Positions 1 to 64,000 are shown, numbered from the stretch's first letter. The stretch is DNA of 64,000 nucleotides from Candidatus Poribacteria bacterium (GCA_963667365.1 OY763324.1:4414509-4478508), one strand, 5' to 3'. The notes: generated by a model from the letters alone, not told the origin. Made by a program: numbers and translations.

Positions 1-50
1 CGGTTTTGTACGTTCATAGGTATAATTATATTAGATTCTCAACAATATGT

Positions 51-962
51 TTATCGGGTATTGCGCCATATCCCTTTGTGATCAGTCTGTGCACGGGTTT
101 CATAACTTTGAAACCTTTCCATGTGCTTAAATGGGAACCGTGTCTCAACACGTCCATAACCCTCACGGATTACCTCAGTATTTACAAATATACCATCAGA
201 AGCGCGGTAGAGATACGCCAGCAAACGTCCATATTTATCTCTTTTGGTTTCACCGAACCGAAGATAAACGGATTCATCCGACAGAAGATCTTGTATAAAA
301 TCTGATGCCTCCGTGCCATATCTTTCCGCGGGGCTGCTTTTCGTCTCTGTTTCGGGTGCATCTACACCGATAAGTTGCACGCTTGTAGGGGTGCCCTTAT
401 ATCTGATTTCAATTGTATCTCCATTGATAACTCTCAGGACTTGATAAGTAGTATCCGCTTTTGCAAGCAGTAATATCAGTAATATAACAGACAACGTCAA
501 CGATGCCAAGAAGGCAGACCCTAAGCCGATTGTCCTACGTATCCATTTCGTAAGTATTGGTTGGATGCGTGCTATATCTGGTTCATCGGTTACGTGTTTT
601 TCGAAATGGGATTGCGTTATATCATCACGAATTCGGTTGGATCGTAGATTCTCAAAAAACTTCCACTCCTTGGGGTTTTCACTTGCTGCTAATATCCCAA
701 AACGTGTGTCTGTTGCACTCAGATAACTCTTTAGTTGATTCTTTCCTTCCTCAGTTATCCCTGTATCGGCACTTTTGCACTCTGCGATGGCGATGAAATG
801 TCCATTCCCATCAAGAAGTACGATATCCGCTATACCGTTCTTATTATTAGTGCTACCAAACTGGATTACTTGCAGTTCTTTTACTGTAAATTGTTCAAAT
901 AATTTTCTATTGAGGTAACCTGTAACAGAATTGGTTACCTCAAATTCGGATGCGTTATTCAT
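51..962 (-). CDS. Membrane-anchored fusion nuclease: N-terminal PD-(D/E)xK (Mrr/restriction-endonuclease-like) domain, one TM helix, C-terminal staphylococcal-nuclease (SNase/thermonuclease) domain
   Basis: 303 aa ORF. N-terminal motif DIVLLD...IAIAECK matches the D-x(n)-E-x-K nuclease signature. A hydrophobic stretch LASLTLSVILLILLLA lies in the middle. The C-terminal part (INGDTIEIRY...LIGVDAPE...YGRLLAYLY...NTEVIREGYG) matches the SNase family consensus. Confidence 0.6.
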   Translation of the reverse strand: MNNASEFEVTNSVTGYLNRKLFEQFTVKELQVIQFGSTNNKNGIADIVLLDGNGHFIAIAECKSADTGITEEGKNQLKSYLSATDTRFGILAASENPKEWKFFENLRSNRIRDDITQSHFEKHVTDEPDIARIQPILTKWIRRTIGLGSAFLASLTLSVILLILLLAKADTTYQVLRVINGDTIEIRYKGTPTSVQLIGVDAPETETKSSPAERYGTEASDFIQDLLSDESVYLRFGETKRDKYGRLLAYLYRASDGIFVNTEVIREGYGRVETRFPFKHMERFQSYETRAQTDHKGIWRNTR

Positions 963-1084
963 ATTAAAATATACCTAATGCTATGTTTTGTAGGTATATA
1001 TCAGCATATAGGTATGGTCGTCCCTCCCCTAAGACGTGGCTATAATATAGCATAGGTCTGTTGGGGTGTCAAGTTTTTTGGTGG

Positions 1085-1530
1085 GCGCGATCTTCTCTCT
1101 TCTGTAGGCGGGGATGAAGGGGAGGATAATACGGAAAGGCTACCCTCTTCTGTAGGCGGGGAATGCTCAATAGCATTCATACCGTTGATTTGAACTCCGA
1201 TTCCCGACATCTTATATTTGTATTCCAACGAACCCCCATCCTATCAAACTTGCGTTGTTGAACAATAGGCTTCTTCGTCCTTTCCTCTTTTTCCTCCCCT
1301 TCCGGGGAATGCCTAAACGGCATTCATACCGTTGATTTGGTGTTTTCCGTGATTCAGACAAATATAAGAGGTCGGGAATCGGAGTTCCCTCCTACAGAAG
1401 AGAAGAACGGCACGGCCAAATCAACGGTATGAATGCCATTGGCGGCATGCGCGTTTGGCATGCCACATGATTCCCCGGAGCGTGCCTACTACCTTAAAGA
1501 GGTCGCTCCTACAGACATCCCTATTTGCAG
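1085..1530. repeat. Intergenic mosaic of modular short hairpin repeats
   Basis: Contains CTCTTCTGTAGGCGGGGAATGC..GCATTCATACCGTTGATTTGAACTCCGATTCCCGAC, GTGATTCAGACAAATATAAGAGGTCGGGAATCGGAGTTCCCTCCTACAGAAGAG and other units that recur throughout the window. Confidence 0.85.
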
Positions 1531-62669: not shown

Positions 62670-62728
62670 ATTATCCCTCTTCTAATGGTAAGACTATTGG
62701 TTGTTAAATTATTATGAATTGGCAAAAG

Positions 62729-63916
62729 TTAAATAATACCTTCTTGTCTCAACAGATCAATTTCTTCAATCGACATATCCAACACATCTGTCAACACTTC
62801 ATCCGTATGTTCTCCAAGACTGGGGGCAGGAGCATCCACATCTCCTGGCGTATCAGAGAGTTTTATTGGGAGACCGGGTACTTCAACGCTACCTGTAACT
62901 TGGTGCATCACACTCGTTATCATTTCTCTTGCTTGAACCTGTGGATGATTTACTACCTTATCAATAGTGTTAATCGGTCCACACGGAACACCGATTTTTT
63001 CCAGTGCTTCAATCCATTCGTCAGTTTTCCGTTGACGCATAATTTCTGAGAGAATAGGAAACAATTGTCCGTGATTATCGGTTCGTCCTGCGTTCGTTTT
63101 GAACCGTGGATCGGAGATTAGATGTTTTTCGTCTACAGATTCACAGAATTTGCACCATAAGGTATCGTTTCCAATTGCAATTATAATATAACCATCTGCA
63201 GATTCAAATGCTTCAAACGGTGTAATCGCGGGATGTCTACTTCCCAGTGGTTGAGGGATTTCATCTGTGGCAAAATATCGGACGATAGCATTTTCCAACA
63301 CCGCTACAAGGCTATCCAACATTGCTACATCTACCAACTGACCTTTACCGGTTTTATTGCGATGATGTAATGCTGACATGATTCCAATGGTTGTGAAGAG
63401 GGCAGACGTGATGTCGCTTATGGACGTTCCAACACGCACTGGAGGACCATTCGGTTCTCCAGTAATACTGATTATCCCACCCATGCCTTGGATAATCATA
63501 TCGTACGCGCCTTGTTCAGAAAAAGGACCTGTCTGACCAAATCCGGAGCAAGCAGCATAAATTAGTGACGGATGTTCAGCAGCAAGTGTTTCGTAATCCA
63601 AATCAAGTTTTCTCATAGTACCTGGACGGAAGTTTTCTACTAAAATATCACTCTGTTTGACAAGTTGTTTGAATATGTGCTTCCCTTGTTTAGTTTTTAG
63701 GTTGAGTGTCACACTACGTTTACCACGATTCACACTCATGAAGTAAAGACTGAAGTCATTTTTGAACGGACCGAAATTTCTTGATTCATCACCAGTTCCA
63801 GGTTGTTCGATTTTAATTACCTCTGCACCAAGGTCACTTAGTATCATAGTTGCATAAGGACCAGCCAGTACTCTCGTTAAATCCAATACCTTTAAACCGG
63901 TCAATGGTCCTGGCAT
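62729..63916 (-). CDS. CoA-transferase family III (CaiB/BaiF; formyl-CoA transferase/L-carnitine dehydratase-like)
   Basis: Start at MPGPLTGLKVLDLTRVLAGPYATMILSDLGAEVIKIEQP.GDESR, the canonical family III N-terminus. The length and the conserved Asp region fit the family. Confidence 0.85.
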   Translation of the reverse strand: MPGPLTGLKVLDLTRVLAGPYATMILSDLGAEVIKIEQPGTGDESRNFGPFKNDFSLYFMSVNRGKRSVTLNLKTKQGKHIFKQLVKQSDILVENFRPGTMRKLDLDYETLAAEHPSLIYAACSGFGQTGPFSEQGAYDMIIQGMGGIISITGEPNGPPVRVGTSISDITSALFTTIGIMSALHHRNKTGKGQLVDVAMLDSLVAVLENAIVRYFATDEIPQPLGSRHPAITPFEAFESADGYIIIAIGNDTLWCKFCESVDEKHLISDPRFKTNAGRTDNHGQLFPILSEIMRQRKTDEWIEALEKIGVPCGPINTIDKVVNHPQVQAREMITSVMHQVTGSVEVPGLPIKLSDTPGDVDAPAPSLGEHTDEVLTDVLDMSIEEIDLLRQEGII

Positions 63917-64000
63917 GTTTATTCCTTTTCGATTGAAAATATTGCTTTTCTGATGCACACGTGCTAAAATGAACTGATATTCTATATTACCAATAAATGG

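Follow-up and report, generated by a model that had tools for sequence, protein, structure and literature searches.

GTAG-tagged repetitive extragenic palindromes with nested hairpins in the intergenic DNA of a Candidatus Poribacteria bacterium

Intergenic DNA in a 64,000-nucleotide stretch of a Candidatus Poribacteria bacterium (GCA_963667365.1 OY763324.1:4414509-4478508, hereafter the window) is crowded with short hairpin repeats. We consider it likely that they form a Poribacteria-specific family of GTAG-tagged repetitive extragenic palindromic (REP) units, hugely expanded, arranged in mosaics resembling bacterial interspersed mosaic elements (BIMEs), and moved in trans as single-stranded hairpins by an enzyme of the REP-associated tyrosine transposase (RAYT) type. 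REPs are best known from Proteobacteria; their mode of spread is argued over, and the partner enzyme has been studied in few species. The present case adds an uncultured phylum of sponge symbionts in which the sequence frame is kept across about 25 species-level genomes, and a lineage that has grown REPs to a fifth of its local DNA. Clean filled and empty sites define a 35-nt unit together with its target, and single-hairpin transposition, the loop as a preferred target and the need for a RAYT are made testable. The family is previously undescribed and lies within the known GTAG REP and BIME kind; what is unusual is its density, its conservation across a candidate phylum and a second tier of loop-targeted hairpins of 26-36 nt.

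A tagged unit with a covarying stem

Self-BLAST of the window assigns 13.8 kb (21.5%) to repeats of at least three copies and 12.4 kb (19%) to repeats of at least five, and 93% of the bases in the latter class are intergenic. The coding share of the window is only 68%. Repeats occupy 56-60% of the 20.4 kb of intergenic DNA and more than half of the sequence in 17 of the 28 intergenic gaps, with at least one unit present in 20 gaps. The 12-nt leader CTCTTCTGTAGG matches 76 times at one mismatch or fewer, where 0.17 matches are expected by chance, and the 19-nt hairpin GGGAACTCCGATTCCCGAC matches 56 times at up to two mismatches, where none is expected. An earlier account of the window by a model (the sequence-only reading) had described a dense intergenic family of seven modules covering about 20% of the DNA, and BLAST of each module against the window recovers all of them (a 46, b at least 12, c 17, d 13, e 15, f 8 and g 5 copies). 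As separate kinds the modules do not stand, and they reduce to a hierarchy, in which one unit with different stems underlies a, c and e. That reading had missed this, as it had missed the GTAG tag within the leader, the identity of d as the spacer between head-to-head REPs and that of b as a REP with a nested hairpin. Its assignment to the neighbourhood of REP/BIME, MITE (miniature inverted-repeat transposable element) or NEMIS-like elements, denser and more modular than usual, agrees with the evidence on each point. It was also right to reject a CRISPR array: the spacing is irregular, both orientations are present, what would be the spacers are repeats in their own right, and the window gave no cas domains. 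The spurious small open reading frames (ORFs) that it described are apparent in translation, where the peptide SGIGVPSYR occurs 36 times. In practical terms, the clusters break short-read Poribacteria assemblies and leave dozens of false small ORFs for annotation pipelines to mask.

The core unit reads TGTAGG-A-[stem of 5-6 bp]-CTCCGN-[complementary stem]-GAC, and the window contains 98 tagged units. They comprise 43 copies of R1 (module a, stem GGGAA/TTCCC; for example CTCTTCTGTAGG-A-GGGAA-CTCCGA-TTCCC-GAC at 2268-2299, plus strand), 16 of R2 (module c, stem GCGAC/GTCGC; 7454-7485, plus strand), 11 of R3 (module e, tag GTAGTA and stem GGCACG/CGTGCC; GTAGTA-GGCACG-CTCCGC-CGTGCC at 14046-14079, plus strand) and 28 GTAG-tagged copies of the hairpin H2, described below. 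The strand count for R1 in the window is 28/28. Further stems, among them GCGAT/ATCGC, GCGGT/ACCGC and GAGGT/ACCTC, occupy the identical register in other Poribacteria; at least six stem families share this register in the window and other Poribacteria together, at least three of them in the window. Covariation was measured in 79 distinct sequences picked solely by the tag and the loop letters TCC. The five stem pairs score 0.377 against 0.143 in shuffled controls, a value reached by none of 500 shuffles, and the signal collapses when the partner column is slid by one to three positions. Stem position 2 is CG in 32 and GC in 21 sequences, and position 5 is UA in 27, AU in 18 and CG in 13. Anchoring on nothing but the hairpin gives a per-position conservation of 89-97% for TGTAGGA across 235 copies from other genomes, and of 95-100% across the window copies; the GAC tail is 98-100% conserved in the same 235 copies, and there is no conservation further out. 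Tag, loop and tail are conserved together with the capacity for pairing; the stem letters are not.

In the shared leader we recognise the defining GTAG tag of a known REP superfamily, and the units have the properties of its members: an unpaired tag, a covarying stem, high copy number, extragenic location, and occurrence as singles, dimers and clusters. Within the superfamily, the layout GTAG-GA-stem...stem-GAC corresponds to the GTAG-1/-2 sub-types, in which a dinucleotide likewise separates tag from stem and a 3-nt motif follows the other stem arm (Di Nocera et al. 2013, PMC3733652). GTAG-1/-2 REPs from Pseudomonas and Xanthomonas and the Poribacteria REPs are alike in their unpaired 5' GTAG, dinucleotide, GC-rich covarying stem-loop and 3-nt tail; both are intergenic, occur as singles, as head-to-head (HH), tail-to-tail (TT) or head-to-tail (HT) dimers and in clusters, and share the frame TGTAGGAGCG...CGCGAC. 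RAYT genes are flanked by cognate REPs (PMC2817692), and two such flanking REPs, GTAGGAGCGCACCtGGGCGCGAC from Xanthomonas and TGTAGGAGCGGCCTTGcGTCGCGAA from P. putida W619, share their frame with the Poribacteria R2 TGTAGGAGCGACCTCCTGGTCGCGAC. The Poribacteria units differ in having a fixed 6-nt loop, CTCCGN, where GTAG-1/-2 REPs have 2-4 nt, and a stem of only 5-6 bp. They differ further in their phylum, in filling about 20% of 64 kb, and in that no RAYT was found in 1.38 Mb of sequence, made up of the window and 184 REP-bearing comparison loci (designated L).

Composites and nested hairpins

Adjacent tagged units in the window are HT in 45 cases, HH (tags outermost) in 23 and TT in 9. About half of the HH pairs are spaced by roughly 120-130 nt, within a range of 70-257 nt, and they enclose module d, which consists of a B-side, GTATYCCAACGAACC...ATCCTATNAAACT, and an A-side, a purine-rich run ending in GTCTGAATCACGGAA. 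We count 18 HH composites around the conserved spacer of about 120 nt, the type example being the 191-nt element at 2268-2458 on the plus strand ([REP> B-side, A-side <REP]), with GTAG tags outermost and no target-site duplication. The check for such duplications, proposed in the sequence-only reading, returned none at any of the 18 composites, so that the combination of terminal inverted repeats and duplication typical of MITEs is not seen in them. The basic composite is 178-186 nt long, and longer ones of 212, ~250, ~290 and ~310 nt carry extra nested hairpins; the length series 179, 212, 248 and 290 nt fits stepwise addition of the hairpins H2 and H3. Conservation is 92-94% at the composite ends and 86% inside, and one composite interior can end in R1 or R2. 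The interior of about 120 nt has no self-complementarity; in other Poribacteria HH pairs with a 14-nt spacer are common. Comparable mosaics of REPs in alternating orientation, with a few recurring linkers, are the BIMEs of E. coli and the REPINs of Pseudomonas fluorescens, where the replicating unit may be an inverted pair (PMC3116915). Unlike these, the Poribacteria spacer is about 120 nt long and conserved in sequence, linker types are far more numerous, and the units are interrupted by smaller hairpins.

The interrupting hairpin H2, GGGGAAYGC-N6-7-GCRTTCAYACCGTTGATTTG, is 35-36 nt long and is present in the window in 33 simple copies (19/14 by strand) and in further interrupted ones; a conserved GAAYGC...GCRTTC stem around a variable loop, as described in the sequence-only reading, is borne out by the simple copies. 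Among 96 distinct copies from the window and related loci, 79 stems could be parsed, and 73 of these are Watson-Crick paired in three compensatory types (AATGC/GCATT 49, AACGC/GCGTT 19, AATAC/GTATT 5), the other six being mismatched or wobble-paired. Comparison of filled and empty sites places H2 exactly between CC and G (YCC^G). It is found at CTCC^G in the loops of R1, R2 and R3, at TTCC^G in the A-side of the spacer, and at TACC^G in the tail of another H2, where a hairpin of about 26 nt, H3 (CGACGAATACC...GTATTCGGC), is also found; paralogous filled and empty pairs exist for all three sites. Insertion is always in one orientation, with at most one ambiguous shared G and no target duplication, and 46 of the 96 distinct copies are preceded by NNCC. 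The cleanest case is orthologous: an R3 REP at 31300-31340 on the minus strand has an empty loop, and the corresponding site in metagenome contig L092, 96% identical to the window over 1.9 kb, holds a 35-nt H2.

Examples on the plus strand of the window include an H2 in the loop of an R1 REP at 5815-5847 (GAACTCC^G...GATTCCC) and one at TTCC^G in an A-side spacer at 1304-1337, for which paralogous empty sites lie at 5856-6029 and 10302-10463. A multiply nested structure at 10123-10262 combines a GTAG tag, an H2 carrying an H3, a second H2 and the 3' half of an R2. The commonest context of H2 is module b, in which it follows directly after GTAGGC, expanding the 5' stem of a REP (1145-1208, plus strand); the outer REP stem still closes around H2 in the fold, and module b probably amplifies as a composite REP.

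Each of these features has a precedent: REP dimers in palindromes, Neisseria mosaics, insertion sequence (IS) IS1397 in REP loops, and the small dispersed repeats (SDRs) of Nostoc. The SDRs, which Elhai et al. reportedly described in Genome Research in 2008, are said to be 21-36 nt long and to sit inside larger repeats with the hairpin structure preserved. H2 shares the mobile appearance, the size class, the location inside larger repeats and the retained hairpin; it differs in its unrelated sequence, its defined YCC^G site and the GTAG tag that it often carries itself. The Nostoc SDR is named in PMC3116915. REP hairpins are also specific insertion targets of IS1397 and ISPpu9/10, which enter REP loops, as cited in PMC2817692 and PMC8450116; those are full-length ISs with transposase genes, whereas H2 is a 35-nt hairpin without coding capacity.

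Distribution, turnover and mode of spread

We searched a one-genome-per-species collection for the exact 32-mer of the R1 unit (module a), with every exact copy returned. Of 64 stretches found, 62 lie in Candidatus Poribacteria records and two in an unclassified metagenome-assembled genome, and the repeats are present in genomes of about 25 Poribacteria species. Several of the Poribacteria records are complete long-read chromosomes. A metagenome scan gave at least 120 matches, and among those listed most are sponge metagenome contigs. Viral contigs yielded no match, a plasmid collection none for a cluster, Rfam no family, and the literature searched no description of these repeats in Poribacteria. 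The modules are neither confined to this contig nor parts of one large IS, two outcomes that the sequence-only reading had named as fatal to its case. The breadth of distribution also bears on the idea that the repeats arose as a side effect when WD40 gene cassettes underwent segmental duplication, or that they are artefacts of assembly, which the data contradict and which we regard as highly improbable. At least nine WD40 paralogues do lie between clusters, and one related contig has an extra cassette bounded by clusters. The gene bodies, however, are similar only at low copy, whereas modules reach up to 60 copies; unrelated genes are flanked by clusters too, and the units recur in assemblies made independently, complete long-read chromosomes from other species among them.

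Targeted alignments of the window with related metagenome contigs reveal differences at a smaller scale. In five contigs whose genes are 96-99% identical to those of the window, the clusters differ by a 36-nt R1 unit, a 50-nt segment, a 48-nt segment, microsatellite length and replaced modules, and one contig (L072, 4571-5790) has an extra gene cassette of about 1.2 kb bounded by clusters. Such unit-sized indels between sequences so similar in their genes indicate that turnover is recent, in support of the recent mobility proposed in the sequence-only reading. In relatives whose Rep protein is 83-84% identical, the 21 kb around the orthologous gene have no R1 or H2 and only two hairpins of the GCGGT family; the expansion is lineage-specific. 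Elsewhere in Poribacteria, R1 occurs as singles, in HT arrays and in HH pairs with the 14-nt spacer. Locus L019 (7600-7830) has an HT array of the bare REP with a 31-nt period, and L011 (1123-1260) has an array of three copies with a 47-nt period.

These differences could be read otherwise, with the repeats as non-mobile host elements (terminators, stabilisers of mRNA ends or protein-binding sites) multiplied only by slippage, unequal crossing-over and gene conversion. Several strain differences are bounded by short direct repeats (TCTTT, CGGG), as slippage deletions would be, and tandem copy number varies at orthologous sites, L001 having one copy where L011 has three. Terminator-like matches are mildly enriched in the window (26 vs 15.5 +/- 4), many of them a REP followed by a T-rich tail. 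Module f is a 74-nt variant of the A-side with (TAATCCGCG)n, in which a hairpin and a T-run read on the minus strand. All eight copies lie on the plus strand (starts 14411, 17197, 20207, 20339, 31448, 44123, 50660 and 53094), and in six cases a minus-strand gene ends 81-234 nt before the module, measured from its stop codon. This suggests that module f serves the host as a terminator, a reused cassette, and some modules are probably useful to the host. As an account of the whole family, host function without mobility is nonetheless unlikely: the strand counts of R1 and H2 show no orientation rule relative to genes, near-identical units are scattered over hundreds of unrelated loci in many species, one of two orthologous sites has an H2 exactly within a REP loop and the other has none, and an R1 inserted beside an R2 does not duplicate its neighbour.

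HH REP pairs also lie at the centre of two classical MITEs in other Poribacteria. The first, of 188 bp, has CAGAGGCATTCAATTG inverted ends, and 13 of its 17 copies show a 10-bp target duplication; it occurs at L006, L008, L012, L016, L028, L029, L033, L044, L048, L051, L053 and L058, and was not found in the window. One copy interrupts a TnpB pseudogene (L029, 4243-4430). The second, of about 136 bp, has TATAGTG...CACTATA ends with TA at both tips and a central pair of R1 and a GCGAT-type REP; its 32 copies are one in the window and 31 at other loci (e.g. L102, 528-663). The window copy, 138 bp at 56934-57071, lies in an AT-rich island and plausibly combines the inverted repeats and target duplication of a MITE. 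The sequence-only reading had noted a repeat unit in that island; the unit is real, and belongs to this complete element, a member of a separate TA-ended family that carries a REP pair. REP dimers inside long palindromes are known from GTAG-15 of Anabaena variabilis, and mosaic intergenic regions from Neisseria (PMC3733652); the Poribacteria repeats resemble both, with REP pairs centring longer palindromic repeats and several families interleaved. The difference is that the two host palindromes in Poribacteria are demonstrable MITEs, one with 10-bp duplications. Taken with the H2 copies in REP loops, the REP pairs at palindrome apices point to hairpin apices as preferred insertion sites.

Could all of the REPs be ends or passengers of conventional MITEs, deletion derivatives of an IS moved by a DDE transposase with target duplications? 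This would imply full-length ISs with TGTAGGAGGGAAC-type ends in complete genomes. The HH composites do resemble elements with 32-45-bp inverted ends, and the REP pairs within the 188-bp and ~136-bp elements speak for such carriage. Against it, none of the window composites has a target duplication and the 188-bp MITE is missing from the window, where no DDE transposase gene was found either; single REPs, the 31-nt HT array of L019 and 35-nt hairpins inserted without duplication could not be made by cut-and-paste of inverted ends; and the stems covary while tag and loop are fixed. We therefore judge a MITE origin quite unlikely.

A fixed short site, no duplication, a single orientation and selection on pairing are hallmarks of the RAYT class and not of DDE transposition, and from these we infer that a RAYT-type enzyme mobilises the units in trans. 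Relatives of the IS200/IS605 transposases, RAYTs are HUH enzymes of the Y1 kind that bind the hairpin and GTAG on single-stranded DNA and cleave nearby, and GTAG REPs are their proposed substrates (PMC3333891, PMC3479197, PMC8266576). The replicating core in Poribacteria would be the 26-32-nt single-strand hairpin TGTAGG-A-stem-CTCCGN-stem'-GAC. An HUH Y1 transposase (RAYT or IS200-IS605 type) encoded elsewhere on the chromosome would recognise this hairpin and act in trans to cut and rejoin it, and the gene of that enzyme would be flanked by inverted TGTAGGAG-type hairpins. In this picture REPs stand as singles, HT tandems and REPIN-like HH composites around the ~120-nt spacer, and a second tier of hairpins, H2 (35-36 nt) and H3 (~26 nt), enters at YCC^G where it is exposed in REP loops, the spacer and H2 tails, one way and without duplication. 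Reshuffling would be furthered by recombination and slippage among adjacent units. More speculatively, H2 may use its 5' GGGG to pair with the target YYCC in the way that IS608 guide sequences pair with theirs.

Several results weigh against RAYT-type mobilisation. No Y1 or RAYT gene was found in the window and the 184 loci by tblastn, a Y1 profile and phmmer over the 10,207 open frames of this set, and in the one-genome-per-species scan no exact 32-mer adjoins a Y1 gene. As single-stranded DNA the R1 hairpin is weak (-3.3 kcal/mol, z = 0.05). The GTAGGC-adjacent H2 of module b is not derivable by one simple insertion. The REP pairs inside MITEs, one with 10-bp duplications, imply that part of the spread is by DDE-type transposition. 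Finally, the contigs compared for strain differences are short metagenome assemblies that break in repeats, and some differences could be assembly chimeras.

The individual searches agree in not finding the gene. Queries with E. coli RayT (validated against PDB 4ER8) and IS200 TnpA by tblastn against the window and loci were negative, as was a scan for the HUH...Y..NP motif; a scan for REP-flanked ORFs gave four candidates, none Y1-like, and a weak RAYT match in L091 turned out to be noise. In the protein database, the RayT matches listed are from Enterobacteriaceae only and do not reach Poribacteria. Family scans of the unannotated window proteins produced no transposase or nuclease candidate. 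TnpB genes (IS605 OrfB, Cas12f-like) are common in Poribacteria, occurring in eight loci and beside the rep gene of relatives (L185 1097-2227, L186 and L187; also L012, L024, L029, L045, L058, L075, L097 and L127), and no accompanying TnpA was seen. TnpB elements were rejected as a source of the hairpins, their ends being without R1, R2 or H2, and subterminal hairpins matching TnpA/TnpB element ends, as expected of IS200/IS605 derivatives, were not found. A GCGGT-TTCCTA-ACCGC hairpin lies near one TnpB gene.

A more radical reading would make H2 and H3 autonomous-target, loop-homing hairpins which, at 26-36 nt, would rank with the smallest mobile DNAs known to be site-specific. Insertion would be at YCC^G in extruded loops, by pairing of their 5' GGGG with the target. 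They would be mobilised by an enzyme other than a classical RAYT, none having been found, and would nest in one another to build hypervariable intergenic mosaics that shuffle 'eukaryote-like' WD40 cassettes around a chromosomal origin with a plasmid-type initiator. We regard this as a tentative and rather doubtful proposal, next to which movement of the REP hairpins by a RAYT-type enzyme is the explanation we favour.

Mosaic clusters and neighbouring genes

The units are gathered in mosaic clusters along the window. The first cluster, at 1091-1506, reaches a self-BLAST coverage of up to 63 copies, and the second, at 2132-2550, has an outer REP pair around an inner HH composite. Others follow at 5596-6140, 7356-7886, 10111-10773, 13954-14648 (including module f at 14411-14484), 16632-17350, 19776-20470, 21768-22238, 23278-24235, 27379-28214, 30405-31573, 33097-33652, 40765-41510, 47904-48348, 50283-50825 and 52928-53249. 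The largest, at 43489-45063, contains module g (GTATAC repeats) and a 143-nt tandem duplication. Relative to the orthologous L072, the cluster at 27379-28214 shows the 36-nt and 50-nt unit-sized indels and one replaced module, and that at 30405-31573 lacks the 48-nt segment and the ~1.2 kb cassette; the content of 40765-41510 is mostly different in the orthologous L114. The cluster at 21768-22238 includes 5.4 copies of a 17-nt microsatellite, TTCTGTATTACATTACA. This microsatellite (up to 5.4 exact copies) lies directly 5' of REP tags at 21837-21928, 30502-30552 and 24043-24076, and an alternative leader, ACATTCTGTAGG, derives from it.

The genes of the window include at least nine for WD40 proteins, some with type IX secretion system (T9SS) tails, a sulfatase gene and restriction-modification systems; no tRNA genes were found. 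This content fits Poribacteria, symbionts of sponges and corals, as judged by comparison with PMC3909097. The WD40 beta-propeller expansion covers at least nine genes across 2551-47062, each bounded by REP clusters, and the extra cassette between clusters in the near-identical L072 suggests that clusters may mediate gain and loss of cassettes.

The AT-rich island at 53343-58777 (GC 31-38%) encodes a tyrosine recombinase, an MjaI-type restriction endonuclease, an N6/N4 methyltransferase and a 581-aa protein of unknown family, and is nearly REP-free. A replication module occupies 38035-40708, where (ATACATGT)x22 is followed by 4.9 copies of a 22-bp iteron (AAGGTGTAGGTTTATGGGAGGA) and a Rep_3/RepB initiator gene. 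A Rep protein of 100% identity is encoded on a 4.78-Mb contig, and in relatives about 7 kb separate the rep gene from gyrA/gyrB, close to where a circular 5.96-Mb record ends. Both observations led us to reject a plasmid origin of the window; the module is possibly a chromosomal origin using a plasmid-type initiator. A gene with a PSCyt1 domain at 6147-7202 on the minus strand contains (ATC)x82 at 6153-6397, which encodes a long poly-Asp tract.

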